Source: Chiloscyllium plagiosum (taxonomy: Eukaryota). From it: a stretch of 34,053 nucleotides of DNA. The position numbers and the translations under genes were made by a program. Positions 523 through 34,053 of this stretch are shown here, piece by piece (within the stretch, counting starts at the first letter, position 1; the number at the start of each line of letters is the position of its first letter). Under the pieces are notes generated by a model. The model was not told where the DNA came from. It made no database searches and worked only from the letters and a program-made list of their open reading frames with translations. The stretch covers positions 12,716,334 through 12,750,386 of the forward strand of contig NC_057711.1 in NCBI RefSeq assembly GCF_004010195.1, given 5' to 3'.

Positions 523-564
523 AAAACACAGCAACACTTTTAATAGCAGAAGGCGGAGTCATAC

Positions 565-595
565 CTTTCTCTCTGTGGGGTAAAAACCACAGTAC
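565..595 (-). CDS. SIGLEC15: Siglec-15-like receptor, cytoplasmic micro-exon (GTVVFTPQRE)
   Basis: Strong acceptor tttttccttctttccag|GT and donor GAAAG|gtatga around 31 nt of non-repeat sequence. Phase 1 in matches the TM exon, phase 2 out. Confidence 0.75.
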
Positions 596-985: not shown

Positions 986-1679
986 AATAGAAGGTCAAGA
1001 CCTGATCAAGGGTGTCCCAGGATGTTGTGGGAAGCTAGGGAAGAAATTGTGGGGCTCCTAGCAGAGATGTTTGTATCATCTACAGCCATGGGTGAGGTGT
1101 AGGAAGAGTGGAGGCTGGTTAATGTTGTCCTTTTACTGAAGAAAGACTGTAAGGAGAAGCCTGGGAAACATAGACAGGTGAGTCTGACATCAATGGTGGG
1201 TAGGTTATTGGAGGGGACTCAGACACAGGATTGACATGGATTTGGAAAAGCAAGGGCTGATTAGGGATAGTCAGCATGGCTCTGTCCACGGGAAATCATG
1301 TCTCACAAACACGACTGAGTTTGTTGAGGATGTGACCAAGAAGATGTATGAGGGTACAGAGGCAGATGTTGTCTATACAGACTTTAGTAAAGCCTTTGAC
1401 ATGGCTTTCCATGGTGGACTGGTTAGTAAAGTTAGATCACATGGGATTCAGGGAGGAATGGTTTGATGGTAGGTGACAGAGGGTGATGGTAGAGGGTTGT
1501 TTTTCAGACTGGAGGCCTGTGACCACCAGTGTTCCACAGGGATCAATGCTGGATCTGCTGTTGTTTGTCATTTATACAAATGATTTGGATGTGAGATTAG
1601 GAACCATGGTTTGTAAGTTTGCAGATGACACCAAAATTGGTGGCACAGTGGACAGTGAGGAAGGTTATCTCAGAGTACA

Positions 1680-1781
1680 TCCTACTCCACAACCACCTGA
1701 TGAAGGAGCAGCGCTCCGAAAGCTAGTGTGCTTCCAAAAGAAAAACCATTGGACTATAACCTGGCGTTGTGAGATTTTTAA
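1680..1781 (+). mobile_element. Short Penelope-type terminal fragment with hammerhead core, inserted in CR1
   Basis: Interrupts the RT frame. Flanked by ctcagagtaca (1669-1679) and ctcggagtaca (1782-1792). Related to 31140-31236. Confidence 0.7.
1694..1728 (+). ncRNA. Minimal hammerhead ribozyme core
   Basis: cac-CTGATGA-a-GGAGC-agc-GCTCC-GAAA-GCTA-gtg: 5-bp helix II, cac/gtg helix I. Confidence 0.6.
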
Positions 1782-2468
1782 CTCGGAGTACAATGGGATC
1801 TTGATCAGCTGGGCCATTGGGCTGAGGAGTGGCAGTTGGAGTTTAATTTACATAAATGTGGGGTGTTGCACTTTGGCAAGACAAACCAGGGTAGGACATA
1901 CACAGTTAAGGGCCCTGGGGAGAGTCGTCAAACAGAGAGACCATGGGGTTCAAGTACATAATTCCTTGAAAAGTGGAGTCGCAGGTAGACAGGGTGGTGA
2001 AGAAGGCATTAGGCACACTTGCCTTCATTGATCAGAGCACTGAGTATAGGAGTTAGGACATCACTTTGTGGCTACAGGATGTTGGCGAGGCCACTTTTGG
2101 AGTACTGTGTACACTTCTGGCTGCTTTTCTATGGGAAGGATTTAAATAAATTGGAGAGGGAGCAGAGAAGAGTTACACGGATTTAACTGGGAATGGAAGG
2201 TTTGAGTATAGGGAGAGGCTGGGTGGGCCGGGACTTTATTCCCTGGAGTGTCGGAGGGGTGACTTTATAAAAATTTATAAAACCATGAGAGGCATGGATA
2301 AGATGAATAGCAAAGGCCTTTTCCCTCAGGTAGGGGAGTTCAAAACTAGGTTTTAAGGTGAGAGGAGAAAAACTTAAAAGGGACCTGAGGGACAAATTTT
2401 TCACACAGAGGGTGGATCGTATTTGGAATGAACTGCTAGAGGAAGTAGTCGATGCAGGGTACAGTCAC

Positions 2469-4260
2469 TGAGAAAGGACACGAAGGGAAAGCATAAAATT
2501 AAAGAACCCAAAGAATATTAGAAATAAAGCAAAAGGAAAAAGTATTAAGTAAGATAACTTTGCTGGGTAAAGCAGAACGGTTAGCTCTGTACAAGAACAA
2601 ATTTAGGCAGCTACGAAAGTTGACAATTAGTCATTAAGGAAGAACAAAAAGCTTTGACAGATCACTTCAAGTACCGACAAGGAAAGACAAAGGGGGGTTT
2701 GAATAGAGAGTTTACTGGGTAAAAACAATGACTGCAAATGAGGAAACTGTTGAAGTCCACATTGATGCCCTGGGGTTGAAGTGTTCCGAGGCGGAAGATG
2801 AGGCATTCTTCCTCCAGGTGTCTGGTGGTGAGGGAGCGGTGCTGGAGGAGGCCCAGGACCTCCATGTCCTCGGCAGAGTGTGAGGGGGAGTTGAAATGTT
2901 GGGCCACGAGGCGGTGCGGTTGATTGGTGCGGGTGTCCCGGAGATGTTCCCTAAAGCGCTCTGCTAGGAGGCGCCCAGTCTCCCCAATGTAGGGGAGACC
3001 GCATCGGGAGCAACGGATACAATAAATAACATTAGTTGATGTGCAGGTAAAACTGTGATGGATGTGGAAGGCTCCTTTAGGGCCTTGGATGGAGGTGAGG
3101 GAGGAGGTGTGGGCGCAGGTTTTACAATTCCTGCGGTGGCAGGGGAAGGTGCCAGAATGTGAGGGTGGGTTGTAGGGGGGGCGTGGACCTGACCAGGTAG
3201 TCATGGAGGGAACAGTCTTTGCGGAAGGCGGAAAGGGGTGGGGAGGGAAATATATCCCTGGTGGTGGGGTCTGTTTGGAGGTGGCAGAAATGTCGACGGA
3301 TGATTTGGTTTATGCGAAGGGTGAAAGGTGAGCACCAGGGGCTTTCTGTCCTTGTTACGGTTGGAGGAGTGGGGTCTGAGGGCGGAGGTGCGGGATGTGG
3401 ATGAAATGCGTTGGAGGGCATCTTTCACCATGTGAGAAGGGAAATTGCGGTCTCTAAAGAAGGAGGCCATCTGGTGTGTTCTGTGGTGGAACTGGTCCTC
3501 CTGGGAGCAGATATGGCGGAGGCAGAGGAATTGGGAATATGGGATGACATTTTTGCAGGAGGTAGGGGGGGAAGAGGTGTAATCCAGGTAGCTGTGGGAG
3601 TCGGTCGGTTTGTAAAAAATGTCGGCGTCAAGTCGGTCATCATTAATGGAGATGGAGAGGTCCAGGAAGGGGAGGGAAGAGTTTACTGACCAAGCATGTG
3701 AGGTGGAAAACAATGAGGGTTTAAGACATATATAAAAACTGTCAGGTTTAAACAAGGACAGGTAACGAGTATGTGACCAAACTTTAGGGGATATCAACAC
3801 TTAATATCATCACCCGAGTCAGTACAAGGGCAGTTTTATCATCACGATTCTAGTAATGGGATCAAAAGATTAACAAGTTCATCACAAGCACAGCAGGAGT
3901 GTGGGGAGGACATCATGTTCATCAGCATGAGTTTGATTGACAGGTTTAATGGGCAAAAGTTGTATAAATACTAAAGATGGTGACTGCCATTTTCGGAATA
4001 GTCTGAGAGAGCGCGAGGTTGGTCAGTGCTGGTAAAAGGTTTTAGAACCTCTATTTAGACTAGGGTTTGGTGTCTTGTTAGTCTGTAACTGTGATACTGT
4101 AGTAGATGTTTAAATAAATGTGCCAAATCTTTACTGGACTACTTGTAAGAATTTTCTTCCAGGCAATTGAACGATCTCAGGGAAAGAACCAGGGAAGGTT
4201 GAGTAGACTCCAGTAGGGAGTCCTCCCCTATCCACTGAAGCTCTTGGGGAGGCTTCAACA
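2469..4260 (+). mobile_element. Putative solo LTR (about 820 bp net) inserted in the CR1 3' end and itself interrupted by Penelope
   Basis: TG...AACA ends, tcac/ttac 4-bp flanks, TATAAATA near 3963, AATAAA near 4113. CR1 sequence resumes directly after 4260. Confidence 0.6.
2718..3677 (-). mobile_element. Penelope-like retroelement, RT C-terminus plus GIY-YIG endonuclease, frameshifted
   Basis: LPFLDLSI..FYKPTDSHSYLDY and NVIYCIRCSRCGLPYIGETGR..RFREH. Perfect 11-bp flanking duplication agagtttactg at 2707-2717 and 3678-3688. Confidence 0.92.
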
Positions 4261-4667: not shown

Positions 4668-5051
4668 CCTGCTTTCTCCACCAGAACGCGAGGGCAATAA
4701 CGATCAGAACAATTGCAAGGAGGCTTCCAACCAAGGCACCGATGATTACTTTGAGCACTGATCGGCCTTCTGTCAAGCTGGCAAAGTAGATGAGTTGCGT
4801 GGAATTGCCGAAGGTGTTCGTGGTCACACACGTGTAGTTCCCTCCCAGCTTTGGGTCATGTAACTCCCCCACAACCTGATACCGCCCTGGGCCTCGTACA
4901 ACTGGAGTATCGCTGGCATTCACGGGCAGTCTGCTCTGTTGGGGATCGATCCACATGATGTTTGGAGAGGGCTCTCCTTGAACGTGACACACAAGGGTAA
5001 ACTGTGTGCCATTGACAACCCGGGTAGACATGTTGAGGATGACAGGTGGAC
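4668..5051 (-). CDS. SIGLEC15: Siglec-15-like receptor, Ig C2-set plus transmembrane exon
   Basis: Acceptor ctctcttttcag|GT, donor CAGG|gtaggt, 384 nt, phase 1-1. Encodes PPVILNMS..LVCHVQGEPSPNIMW..GNYTCVTTNTFGNS, then hydrophobic VIIGALVGSLLAIVLIVIALAFWW and stop-transfer RKQ. Confidence 0.9.
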
Positions 5052-11075: not shown

Positions 11076-11477
11076 CTGTTATTTTCAGGATGGTCCCAAG
11101 ATTGTTTTCTTTCATGTAAGCAGGTAATGCTGGGCGTTTGACTTCCACACGACAGAAATACTCGCTGGTGTCATCCAGCCTGGCTTCTTTTATCTCGACT
11201 GAAGCATTACCAATCCTGGGGTCTCCAACCAGTCTATACCGGTCATTAATATTCGTGTGAACCATATTTTCAAAATCCCCCTGACCCTTGGCTCTGTTTG
11301 TTGCGTTGAAGAGAACTGTCCCTGTATAAAACACCCCTATTTTCCAGATGACCGTGATCTCAAAGGTAGTGTAGCTGGCATAGGGGAACGTGAAATAGCA
11401 AGGCAGAACGACAGCACTTCCAACTGTTCCATGTACCCTCCTCGGTGCATTCACTGTCAACAGCTCTCTGTTACTTT
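11076..11477 (-). CDS. SIGLEC15: Siglec-15-like receptor, Ig V-set domain exon
   Basis: Acceptor ttttctgcag|AA, donor ACAG|gtaagt, 402 nt, phase 1-1. Encodes VVLPCYF..VIWK..DRYRLVGDPRIGNASVEIKEARLDDTSEYFCRVE, resembling the Siglec-15 D-F strands (RFRLLGNPR..D..YFCRVE). Orthologue versus paralogue is unresolved. Confidence 0.9.
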
Positions 11478-21154: not shown

Positions 21155-21206
21155 CCGCGATCGGCAGCAGCAGCAGGAGAGATAGCAGCAAATGAAGTGT
21201 TTTCAT
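21155..21206 (-). CDS. SIGLEC15: Siglec-15-like receptor, coding exon 1 (signal peptide MKTLHLLLSLLLLLPIA)
   Basis: Minus strand reads gaccATG AAA ACA CTT CAT TTG CTG CTA TCT CTC CTG CTG CTG CTG CCG ATC GCG G|gtatgt: good Kozak context, basic n-region plus Leu-rich h-region, 52 nt, phase-1 donor that joins in frame to the V exon. Too short for the ORF track. Confidence 0.85.
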
Positions 21207-28599: not shown

Positions 28600-29585
28600 A
28601 GTTTAGATTCCCAACAGTGTGGGAACAGGCCAGTTGGCCCAGCAAGTTCACACCGACCCTCCAAAGAGTAACCCACCCCAGCAAGTTCACACCGACCCTC
28701 CAAAGAGTAACCCACCCAGACCCATTTCCCTCTGACTAATTCGCCTAACACTATGAGCAATTTAGCATGGCCAATTCACCTAAGCTGCACATAGTCATAG
28801 AGTCAAAGTTCGGTCCAACCCATCCATGCTGACCAGATATCCCAACCCAATCTCGTCCCACCTGCCAGCACCCAGTCCAATCCCTCCAAACCCTTTCTAT
28901 TCATATACCCATCCAAATGCCTCTTAAATGTTGCAATTGTACCAGCCTCCATCACGTCCTCTGGCAGCTCATTCCATACATTTGTACCACCCTCTGAGTG
29001 AAAACATTGCCCCTTAGGCCTCTTTTATATCTTTTCCCTTTCACCCTAAACCTATGCCCTCTAGTTCTGGACTCCCCGACCCCAGGGAAAAGACTTTGTA
29101 TATTTATCCTATCCATGCCCCTCATAATTTTGTAAACCTCTAAAACGTCACCCCTCAGCCTCCGACGCTCCAGGGAAAACAGCCCCAGCCTGTTCAGCCT
29201 CTCCCTGTAGCTCAAATCCTCCAACCCTGGCAACATCCTTGTAAATATTTTCTGAACCCTTTCAAGTTTCACAACATCTTTCCAATAGGAAGGAGACCAG
29301 AATTGCACGTAATATTCCAAAACTGGCCTAACCAATGTCCTTTACAGCCGCAACATGACCTCTCAACACCTGTACTCAATACTCTGACCAATAAAGGAAA
29401 GCATACCAAATGCCTTCTTCACTATCCTATCTACCTGCAACTTCACTTTCAAGGAGCTATGAACCTGCACTGCAAGGTCTCTCCCCGCAGACACGGGAGA
29501 GTGTGCAAACTCCACAAGGTTGGAATCGAACCCAGGTCCCTGGTGCTGTGAGGCAGCAGTGCTAACCACTGAGCCACCATGCTGC
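28600..29585 (-). mobile_element. HE1-type SINE split by a CR1 3' fragment (about 28791-29480)
   Basis: SINE 3' half 28600-28790 and 5' half 29480-29585 flank CR1 ORF VRPVLEYYVQFWSP..LGLFSLERRRLRGD. The SINE 3' half has a 39-bp tandem duplication at 28638-28715. Confidence 0.82.
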
Positions 29586-30357: not shown

Positions 30358-31236
30358 GATGTGGAGGTGCCGGTGTTGGACTGGGGTGGACAAAGTTAAA
30401 AATCACACAACACCAGGTTATAGTCTAACAGTGCAGTAGGAATTTATAAAATGTCACATGGATTATAAAACATATAGACTGCCTACAGATTGTGTGCTTT
30501 TTGAACAAAATAGAATGTATCTGCAAATACAATTCTCCAAATGCAAATTTACCCCATAGACTTATATGTGTGTGTGCGTGCATGTTAGGGAGACCGTGTA
30601 TGTGTGTGTGAGTGCATGCATGTGAGGGAGACCGTGTGTGTGTGTGTGAGTGCGTGCATGTGAGGGAGACCGTGTGCGTGTGTGTGTGCGTGCATGTGAG
30701 GGAGACCGCGTGTGTGTGTGNNNNNNNNNNNNNNNNNNNNNNNNNNNNNNNNNNNNNNNNNNNNNNNNNNNNNNNNNNNNNNNNNNNNNNNNNNNNNNNN
30801 NNNNNNNNNNNNNNNNNNNNNNNNNNNNNNNNNNNNNNNNNNNNNNNNNNNNNNNNNNNNNNNNNNNNNNNNNNNNNGAGAGAAAGAAGATTGGAGAACA
30901 TATACACTCTAACCTCACAATTTCAATGCATTGTTTGAACAGAGATGTCACCATTTTTTTGTAAAACCTTAAGTTATCTTGCGAATGTGACTTGAAAGAA
31001 GTTCTGGGATTTACATATTAATGAACTGAAATCTGCAAACCATTCTAAAAGATGAAAGACTTAACACCAATCTAGGCTTGTTCAATACAATGCATCAGTG
31101 TTTGACACTATGATCGTTTGCTATAAATTCTGTGTCCTATGATCCTGCTCCACTAGCTACCTGACCAAGGAGCAACGCTCTGAAAGCTTGTATTTCCAAA
31201 TAAATTTGTTGAACTATAACCTGGTGTTGTGTGATT
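30358..31236. mobile_element. Penelope-associated element with inverted ends and internal TG-rich minisatellite
   Basis: aatcacacaacaccaggttatagtctaaca (30401-30430) is inverted at 31207-31236. Degenerate hammerhead ctgaccaaggagcaacgctctgaaag near 31161. Related to 1680-1781. Confidence 0.65.
30568..30720. repeat. About 34-38-bp gcatgtgagggagacc(gt)n minisatellite running into a gap
   Basis: Four visible units of gcatgt(g/t)agggagaccg followed by TG runs. Confidence 0.85.
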
Positions 31237-32071
31237 ACTAAGACTCACCTTATGTTACAGAATTCTAACTAATTGGTGTGAAATTCCATCAGCTGTTTTG
31301 GTGGGATTTGAAACTGTGTCCCAGGTTATTAACTGGGACCTCAGACACCAAGCTAATGGACCCCCACCAATACACCACACAGCCAGTGAGAATCAAACTG
31401 TCTCAAAACTCTGGACTGAGATTGTAACTATCCCACAGCCTCAGTCATGGGTCAGGTTCCAGGTGAAGGCTGTGTCTTTGGTCATCTTTCTGTCAATTTG
31501 GGTTGGACCTCATCATGGGAGATAGCAGCAGGAAGCTGTTGTCTTCCACAGACTGTGCTGCTTTAGCGAGACATTGGTGTAAGCATATGGCGTATCAACA
31601 CTGACAACTCTGTGCTCCCGCGGCCCACATGAAAGATATCCGTGTTGGTTTTCACCAAAAAAAAGGAACGGCACTATAAGTTGCCCTTAAAGGGGTTTGT
31701 GTTGAAGGAGGTGCTGCATTTCCTAGTGCATGCAGGGTTGCCATGCCAACGATCATGGCGTTGTGTGTCTTGGTGCTCCAGGAGTTACAACACACAGGTC
31801 AGAAGACTGCATTGTGCAGAGTGTAATTGGAGACAAGCCTGTCAAGACTTCAGGCTGACCGTGAACAGCGACGCTGTTGTAAATGGATGTCGCCTTCAGC
31901 TGGCAGGCAAGGAAGACAGAGAGGGTCAGTCATTCAAATAAACATGAGCTGTGTAGGATATGAAAATAGCTGTCGACATTAAACTGGGAACGGGAATTAG
32001 ACAGTCAGCTGCTGAACCTTCTCCTGTTCAATTCAAATTCAGTTCAAGTCCACGGAGCTGCTTCTTGCTCC

Positions 32072-34053
32072 TTAACCCTCTGTCTCCTCATACTCCCTCA
32101 CTCACTCTCTGTCTCCTCATACTCCCTCACTCACTCTCTTCTCCTCATACTTCCTCAGTCACCCTCGGTCTCCTCATACCCCCTGTCAGCCTCTGTCTCC
32201 TCATGCTTCCTCAGTCACCCTCTGTCTCCTCATACTTCCTCAGTCACCCTCGGTCTCCTCATACCCCCTGTCAGCCTCTGTCTCCTCATGCTTCCTCAGT
32301 CACCCTCTGTCTCCTCATACTTCCTCAGTCACCCTCGGTCTCCTCATACCCCCTGTCAGCCTCTGTCTCCTCATGCTTCCTCAGTCACCCTCTGTCTCCT
32401 CATACTTCCTCAGTCACCCTCGGTCTCCTCATACCCCCTGTCAGCCTCTGTCTCCTCATGCTTCCTCAGTCACCCTCTGTCTCCTCATACTTCCTCAGTC
32501 ACCCTCGGTCTCCTCATACCCCCTGTCAGCCTCTGTCTCCTCATGCTTCCTCAGTCACCCTCTGTCTCCTCATACTTCCTCAGTCACCCTCGGTCTCCTC
32601 ATACCCCCTGTCAGCCTCTGTCTCCTCATGCTTCCTCAGTCACCCTCTGTCTCCTCATACTTCCTCAGTCACCCTCGGTCTCCTCATACCCCCTGTCAGC
32701 CTCTGTCTCCTCATGCTTCCTCAGTCACCCTCTGTCTCCTCATACTTCCTCAGTCACCCTCGGTCTCCTCATACCCCCTGTCAGCCTCTGTCTCCTCATG
32801 CTTCCTCAGTCACCCTCTGTCTCCTCATACTTCCTCAGTCACCCTCGGTCTCCTCATACCCCCTGTCAGCCTCTGTCTCCTCATGCTTCCTCAGTCACCC
32901 TCTGTCTCCTCATACTCCCTCACTCACCCTCTGTCTCCTCATGCTTCCTCAGTCACCCTCTGTCTCCTCATACTCCCTCACTCACCCTCTGTCTCCTCAT
33001 GCTTCCTCAGTCACCCTCTGTCTCCTCATACTCCCTCACTCACCCTCTGTCTCCTCATGCTTCCTCAGTCACCCTCTGTCTCCTCATACTCCCTCACTCA
33101 CCCTCTGTCTCCTCATGCTTCCTCAGTCACCCTCTGTCTCCTCATACTCCCTCACTCACCCTCTGTCTCCTCATGCTTCCTCAGTCACCCTCTGTCTCCT
33201 CATACTCCCTCACTCACCCTCTGTCTCCTCATGCTTCCTCAGTCACCCTCTGTCTCCTCATACTCCCTCACTCACCCTCTGTCTCCTCATGCTTCCTCAG
33301 TCACCCTCTGTCTCCTCATACTCCCTCACTCACCCTCTGTCTCCTCATGCTTCCTCAGTCACCCTCTGTCTCCTCATACTCCCTCACTCACCCTCTGTCT
33401 CCTCATGCTTCCTCAGTCACCCTCTGTCTCCTCATACTCCCTCACTCACCCTCTGTCTCCTCATGCTTCCTCAGTCACCCTCTGTCTCCTCATACCCCCT
33501 GTCAGCCTCTGTCTCCTCATGCTTCCTCAGTCACCCTCTGTCTCCTCATACTCCCTCAGTCACCCTCTGTCTCCTCATACCCCCTCAGTCAGCCTCTGTC
33601 TCATACTCCCTCAGTCACCCTCTGTCTCCTCATACTCCTCAGTCACCCTCTTGTCTCCTCATACTCCCTCACTCACCCTCTGTCTCCTCATACTCCCTCA
33701 CTCACCCTCTGTCTCCTCATACTCCCTCACTCACCCTCTGTCTCCTCATACTCCCTCACTCACCCTCTGTCTCCTCATACTCCCTCACTCACCCTCTGTC
33801 TCCTCATACTCCCTCACTCACCCTCTGTCTCCTCATACTCCCTCACTCACCCTCTGTCTCCTCATACTCCCTCACTCACCCTCTGTCTCCTCATACTCCC
33901 TCACTCACCCTCTGTCTCCTCATACTCCCTCACTCACCCTCTGTCTCCTCATACTCCCTCACTCACCCTCTGTCTCCTCATACTCCCTCACTCACTCTCT
34001 GTCTCCTCATACTCCCTCACTCACCCTCTGTCTCCTCATACTCCCTCACTCAC
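32072..34053. repeat. 29-bp pyrimidine-rich minisatellite with higher-order structure
   Basis: Base unit actccctcactcaccctctgtctcctcat, with zones of 85-bp, 58-bp and 29-bp period. Continues to the window edge. Confidence 0.97.

Follow-up and report, generated by a model that had tools for sequence, protein, structure and literature searches.

According to the literature cited here, Siglec-15 is a conserved activating Siglec whose transmembrane helix carries a lysine (Lys) that has been kept from fish to mammals (PMC7226832). This Lys is required for binding to the adaptors DAP10 and DAP12 (PMC6941304), and its replacement by alanine abolishes the binding of both (PMC7226832). The ligand is contacted by Y87, R143, Y154 and E155, and also by W44; the cysteines (Cys) are paired as Cys64–Cys142 and Cys95–Cys104, and Arg143 is needed for sialic-acid binding (PMC10264397). 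The cytoplasmic tail contains the sequence YENL, an endocytosis motif (PMC10603120), and loss of Siglec-15 in mice results in mild osteopetrosis (PMC11652361).

Here we describe a receptor of this kind from the cartilaginous fish Chiloscyllium plagiosum, in which the helix has no such Lys. It is encoded on the minus strand of a 34,053-nt stretch of contig NC_057711.1—‘the window’, by which we mean the whole of the DNA that was analyzed—by an intact, spliced gene, uninterrupted by stop codons, with four exons in the window. We put at roughly 0.6 the probability that the protein is a binder of sialylated glycans, as seems likely, that does not signal through DAP12, and that a Lys-bearing sister gene, probably adjacent, is the activating arm of the same cluster. 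All 289 of the exon-encoded residues (289/289) are identical to those of the RefSeq ‘Siglec-15’ of C. plagiosum, XP_043576993.1 (P0179). The window gene is this already annotated gene, and the cartilaginous-fish origin proposed in an initial annotation, which was made from the DNA letters, is confirmed.

The features of the gene are collected in Table 1. The phases of the signal-peptide, V-set and cytoplasmic exons are compatible, and exon 3 is covered by read contigs with 0–2 differences. The joint between exons 3 and 4 is spanned by transcript-type contigs from three runs, at whose end the match to the genome stops at 565, and by one raw read; two of these runs have no recorded kind and one is guessed to be RNA, so that none is on record as RNA. 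The raw read comes from a single-cell run, of which ∼2% was read. The RefSeq model for C. plagiosum reads through the donor at 564 to form its C-terminus, whereas those for C. punctatum and Hemiscyllium splice to a further exon. Because the contig matches stop at 565, and the depth in 433–595 is explained by about 28 nt, these data indicate that molecules splice from the donor at 564 to an exon beyond the window and do not follow the read-through form of RefSeq. The last exon, which in relatives encodes the tail tyrosine (Tyr), lies outside the window. The V and C2 domains have two Cys each, and the ectodomain has seven N-glycosylation sequons. Neither a second gene of the family nor an alternative, Lys-bearing helix exon was found in the called sequence of the window, three N gaps excepted.

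Table 1. Coordinates of the window gene and its features (position 1 is the first letter of the window)
Feature	Position	Strand	Basis
Exon 1, coding part (17 codons + 1 nt): start codon ATG, signal peptide	21155..21206	-	GT donor; matches P0179 residues 1–17
Exon 2 (402 nt): Ig domain of the V-set type with C44 and C126 as its only Cys	11076..11477	-	AG/GT ends
Arg127, aligned with sialic-acid-binding Arg143 of Siglec-15	11149..11151	-	invariant column in alignment A3
Exon 3 (384 nt): Ig domain of the C2 type, then stalk and membrane-spanning helix	4668..5051	-	AG/GT ends; Pfam Ig_3 E 9.6e-10
Lys252, outer helix edge, 25 residues before cytoplasmic Arg277	4750..4752	-	translation and orthologue alignment
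Uncharged transmembrane core V253–W276, 24 residues	4678..4749	-	translation, hydropathy, AlphaFold2
G256-x-x-x-G260 motif	4726..4740	-	translation
Leu262–Leu263, aligned with the DAP12-binding Lys of relatives	4717..4722	-	alignment and distance counts
Exon 4: first cytoplasmic exon, 31 nt	565..595	-	AG/GT ends; splice joint to exon 3
Intron start read through to a stop by the RefSeq model	540..564	-	last 18/18 residues match the end of P0179; absent from contigs

The remainder of the window contains features of other kinds. In 1–524, an identical copy of the first 200 bases follows 309 bases later, as a tandem duplication or an assembly artifact, and this repeat lies just inside the intron that precedes the unseen last exon. 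A 29-bp tandem array of ∼69 copies occupies 32075–34053, and smaller arrays occur at 28638–28717 and 30567–30720. The broken frames at 1000–3700, putatively reverse-transcriptase-like by their motifs, have a very high read depth that stems from other copies, with some poly(A) loose ends near 1730. On the plus strand, 31633–31941 is a Cys-rich open frame of 102 codons with no match in Pfam. Upstream of the gene, 0 of 95 frames in the window reached the Pfam cut-off and so offered no neighbor gene for synteny with the human locus at 18q12.3.

Judged by its sequence matches, the V domain is nearer to Siglec-15 than to other Siglecs or to PILR, and the protein belongs to the Siglec-15 family in the wide sense. 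Exon 2 matches the Pfam V-set (E 5.1e-08), and its best PDB match is Siglec-15, 7ZOZ (E 2.5e-14), as the initial proposal of a Siglec-15-like receptor would have it. Siglec-5 (2.7e-09), PILR-alpha (3e-05) and sialoadhesin (7e-04) also match; CD22 and MAG are absent from the 22 PDB matches to the V domain. A structure model superimposes on 7ZOZ with an rmsd of 2.2 and a TM-score, by target, of 0.89, and an HMM search retrieves SIGLEC15 proteins. The two-domain Foldseek ranking was set aside as evidence of family, as PD-L1 and other V+C proteins dominate it and it does not discriminate. The CD33-related Siglecs, CD22, MAG and Siglec-1 have an extra Cys in each of the V and C2 domains, and these form an inter-domain disulfide. 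These extra Cys are absent from the window protein.

The SIGLEC15 proteins used for comparison were the human structure 7ZOZ and proteins of golden mole, bird, frog, lungfish, coelacanth and teleosts; human residue numbers were transferred via the golden mole protein, P0076. The window protein has the domain layout of canonical SIGLEC15—one V-set domain, one C2-set domain, a helix and a short tail. Also as in Siglec-15, it has the F-strand Arg, the Cys of the B–F disulfide (Cys44 and Cys126 align with Cys64–Cys142), the alignment equivalents of Y87, Y154 and E155 (Tyr68, Tyr138 and Glu141) and, in most orthologue models, a single tail Tyr at the same spacing. It differs from SIGLEC15 in having Leu262/263 for the helix Lys (K274), in lacking the Cys95–Cys104 pair (replaced by Ala76 and Asn88) and Trp44 (replaced by Leu24), in its seven ectodomain N-glycosylation sequons, and in not being its sister in trees of V+C2. 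There are only two Cys in the V domains of 16/16 orthologues, compared with four or five in those of 11/11 SIGLEC15 proteins. In alignment A3 (MAFFT; 12 orthologues, six SIGLEC15 proteins and one Lys-less relative from coelacanth), Trp occupies the W44 place in none of the 12 orthologue rows and in all six SIGLEC15 rows. With the Trp44 equivalent missing, and the cloned zebrafish Siglec-15 binding glycans poorly (PMC7226832), lectin activity of the window protein would seem probable rather than assured.

The helix proceeds from K252 through the 24 uncharged residues V253–W276 to R277–K278, exactly as the initial annotation had read it. It is the stronger of only two 21-residue windows, in all six frames of the window, with a mean hydropathy of at least 2.3; AlphaFold2 makes residues 245–278 a single helix. 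It is no chance reading, for the helix ends an exon that also encodes the Ig C2 domain. The initial annotation had further noted a GALVG motif, and had placed Ser261 at the Lys position. The motif and the Ser (4723–4725) are where they were said to be; the equivalence is not upheld. The MAFFT alignment and two distance counts rule out Ser261 and arrive at Leu262 (4720–4722) or Leu263 instead. In the alignment, the Lys of the six canonical SIGLEC15 proteins falls on Leu262, and the Gly two residues before it (K-2) on Gly260. Counted from the last C2 Cys, 20 shark-type Lys proteins have their Lys at +36/+37 and seven non-teleost SIGLEC15 proteins have it at +37/+38 (+42/+43 in teleosts); in the window protein, these distances correspond to Ser261 (+35), Leu262 (+36) and Leu263 (+37). 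Whichever register is chosen, the aligned sequences place no basic residue at the Lys position. The human motif that the initial annotation quoted, GALGFK, played no part in the present alignment. GxxxG itself is not a defining feature: the strict form occurs in only 11 of 16 orthologues, and small-xxx-small in 15.

Homologue searches, one profile search and cluster look-ups retrieved one orthologue per species in 16 species: 12 sharks, three rays and one chimaera. The F-strand Arg is present in every one (16/16), and a K, R, D or E in the helix core (-19 to -1 from the cytoplasmic edge) in none (0/16). The latter count sustains the earlier proposal of a non-activating receptor, and from its sequence the window protein is likely to be non-activating. 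The companion proposal, that it is of a decoy or adhesion type, is incomplete, for it overlooked the tail. Y-x-x-V occurs there in 11 of the 16 orthologue models, eight of which fit the strict ITIM consensus, while two begin with Thr and one with Gln.

That the protein is purely an adhesion or decoy lectin, with no working signal in its tail, we consider very unlikely. The RefSeq tail of C. plagiosum, which ends 21 residues past the helix and has no Y-x-x-hydrophobic motif, would suit such a protein. So would the four other orthologue models without the motif (S. canicula, where the model ends; Mustelus, with Phe; Mobula, with Y-x-x-A; and the chimaera, with no tail Tyr motif) and the restriction of the strict consensus to 8/16. 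But the contigs leave the genome at donor 564 and run on, and what they show is therefore not the short model. Of the five exceptions, moreover, two look truncated. In the rest the Tyr keeps a fixed distance from the C2 Cys: +70 to +72 in 12 of the 14 orthologues for which it was counted, compared with +71 to +75 in five SIGLEC15 proteins. The Tyr motif of the orthologues would thus be likely to confer endocytic or weakly inhibitory signaling. Two orthologues, P0010 of sawfish and P0011 of Mobula, have tails of ∼240–250 residues made up of acidic repeats.

Activation might conceivably proceed by a different route, in which Lys252, on the outer margin of the helix, pairs with an adaptor such as FcR-gamma or DAP10, or through a partner chain. 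A basic residue (K/R) is found at this place in 12/12 shark orthologues, the predicted helix (245–278) begins before it, and in Siglec-15 the Lys-to-Ala change may leave a minimal interaction with FcR-gamma (PMC7226832). Yet the 24 uncharged residues that follow Lys252 suffice to span the membrane. Its position is -25, compared with -11 to -18 for the adaptor Lys of the family, and the proteins of sawfish, skate and chimaera do without it. Lys252 is likely to lie at the outer membrane surface, and we regard activation by this route as highly improbable.

A Lys-bearing family member exists in the same species, where the initial annotation had proposed to look for one: XP_043560161.1 (P0226), named ‘CXADR-like’, on a contig equally long as that of the window gene. 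It belongs to a sister group within cartilaginous fishes in which 20 proteins of 19 species, including a chimaera, have Lys at -14; these 20 were picked because they carry it. The same homologue searches retrieved no Lys gene for Hemiscyllium, Mobula birostris or Amblyraja, and Pristiophorus has one for which there are no contig data. In 12 of 16 species the Lys gene and the window orthologue are on equally long contigs, and in C. punctatum and S. torazame they have consecutive gene identifiers (in the latter on a 141-kb scaffold). The Lys gene is likely, then, to adjoin the window gene; in C. plagiosum the basis for this is the equal length of the contigs alone.

The Lys gene and the window gene are alike in family, in being nearest relatives in the V+C2 trees, and in the length and position of the helix. 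The Lys gene differs in usually having two V domains, in its mid-helix Lys and in its tail, which is 4–9 residues long in all 18 elasmobranch proteins; it is 29–40% identical to the domains of the window gene. The F-strand Arg is found in any V domain of only 4/19 Lys proteins, among them the second V of P0226. Nine other members of the sister group have uncharged helices, six of them with two to five Tyr motifs, and ITIM-tailed twins of the Lys gene exist. In trees, members with the Lys and members with an uncharged helix fall together species by species or lineage by lineage, and the branches of Heptranchias and Callorhinchus are very short; such pairing would be as expected from homogenized receptor pairs. 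Primate Siglec-5/14 and Siglec-11/16 are paired activating and inhibitory receptors. The sister clade, with its Lys-bearing and ITIM-bearing genes grouped by species or lineage, matches the pattern of primate paired Siglecs of this type (for the concept, see PMC7916943). The window gene does not, being no near-identical twin of the Lys gene but an old, separate branch of the cluster.

Members of the cluster are hidden from name searches by inconsistent database names, such as CXADR-like, Siglec-12, CD276-like and kalirin-like (P0204, P0206, P0216, P0222 and P0226). In four ray proteins of the sister group (P0220, P0216, P0095 and P0223), the mid-helix Lys gives way to an Arg close to the helix's outer end, possibly for a second type of adaptor. 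Bony vertebrates have Siglec-15-like proteins without Lys, too: P0015, P0121, P0237, P0047 and P0019, from axolotl, caecilian, paddlefish, coelacanth and lungfish. In all five the Arg and the second pair of Cys are retained, and the tails of three contain two or three Tyr motifs; the lungfish model (P0019) has seven V domains.

Trees of V+C2 were built from 47 rows, with the helix left out, under LG+G4 and a mixture model. Most of the 150 representatives are long multi-Ig proteins and were excluded, as were 12 near-redundant or partial rows and, from V+C2, three more without a C2 match; CD22, MAG and Siglec-1 are outside the sampling. The taxa of nine of the 15 Lys-less ‘L’ rows and of both outgroup rows are provisional, and hence so is the root. 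On V+C2 the window clade has support of 100/99, and its union with the shark sister group 86/66 under LG+G4 and 96/98 under the mixture model. Joining the window clade to SIGLEC15 is rejected by AU tests on V+C2 (p 0.006 and 0.023), in agreement with the earlier view of a paralogue rather than a one-to-one orthologue. The phylogeny relative to Siglec-15, which had also been proposed at the outset, is therefore divided in its outcome: the protein groups outside the SIGLEC15 clade on V+C2, and the single domains do not reject that clade. The tree of V alone does not recover the window clade and its shark relatives as sister groups. The relationships suggest that the window gene belongs to a cartilaginous-fish radiation that, as a whole, stands in many-to-many homology to SIGLEC15 of bony vertebrates and the Lys-less relatives of the latter.

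It is unlikely, though less so than the two alternatives above, that the window gene is the true counterpart of SIGLEC15, kept or returned in a Lys-less state, with Lys gained on the bony-vertebrate stem and separately in the shark sister gene. The layout of one V, one C2 and one Tyr is the same, there is one gene per species in 16 species, and the spacing of the tail Tyr is as in SIGLEC15. Neither V alone (AU p 0.076) nor C2 alone (p 0.053) rejects the grouping, and, counted on the tree of ectodomains, gaining Lys twice takes fewer steps than losing it repeatedly. The helix, which has the K-2 Gly in common, is the most SIGLEC15-like among the groups compared. With the Lys masked, that of the window clade scores 24.8 against SIGLEC15 helices (shuffled, 17.3) and that of the shark Lys proteins 17.1 (shuffled, 14.6), a difference whose direction a second comparison shares, but these shuffle scores count related sequences as independent and so overstate significance. 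Homogenization of ectodomains in the sister clade likewise makes the step counts unreliable. The V+C2 tests reject the grouping, and the window gene has neither Cys95–Cys104 nor Trp44, features that SIGLEC15 shares with the Lys-less relatives of bony vertebrates. The spacing of the Lys from the C2 Cys, finally, is the same in the shark proteins as in non-teleost SIGLEC15. The Lys gene itself and bony-vertebrate SIGLEC15 do not form one ectodomain clade either (AU p 0.008 on V+C2). Had the Lys helices of sharks and bony vertebrates a common origin, a higher similarity would be expected; that found is lower than for the window clade, and spacing alone would argue for shared origin.

We return, then, to a receptor that would bind and would not activate. 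Arg127, with Tyr68, Tyr138 and Glu141, would form a Siglec-type site, weakened perhaps by the absence of the A-strand Trp. With a Leu where the Lys would be, no salt bridge to the Asp of DAP12 should form. The single tail Y-x-x-V, a positional match to YENL, could drive internalization of bound ligand, and may give weak damping of the ITIM or ITSM type. The overall role would be that of an endocytic or dampening lectin, with activation left to the Lys-bearing neighbor. Concerning DAP12 in sharks, we found nothing in the literature searched; DAP12, TYROBP, DAP10 and SIGLEC had no match in the supplement of PMC3964593, which as searched may lack the immune tables.

In the initial annotation, the missing Lys was linked to the missing bone of sharks, or to a state before coupling to DAP12. 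The bone argument needs sharks without a Lys-type member; C. plagiosum and 18 other cartilaginous fishes have one, so that the missing Lys says little about bone. Chondrichthyans, furthermore, are considered to have lost bone and not to predate it (PMC12404806). The lineage of the window gene may still keep the state before Lys, with Lys having arisen separately in SIGLEC15 and in the shark sister gene. Going further, the hallmarks of Siglec-15 would be split between probably neighboring genes, one with the Arg (16/16) and no Lys, the other with the Lys and mostly no Arg (4/19). That sialic-acid binding and DAP12 were joined in bony vertebrates, Lys having been gained twice, is a tentative idea that we regard as doubtful. 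If it is true, the shark gene is a natural pre-DAP12 version with which to ask how the Siglec-15 pathway of osteoclasts arose.

We found no earlier description of the helix of the shark protein, or of this cluster, in the open literature; subscription papers (e.g. Angata 2007) were outside the scope. Under the RefSeq name Siglec-15, sharks, rays and a chimaera have a protein that departs from the rule of the kept Lys and whose gene belongs to a cluster containing relatives with a Lys and relatives with an ITIM. This does not explain the absence of bone in sharks. It changes the choice of shark gene for comparisons with the mammalian receptor known from osteoclasts and as a checkpoint, and gives a test case for when the sensing of sialic acid became tied to DAP12.
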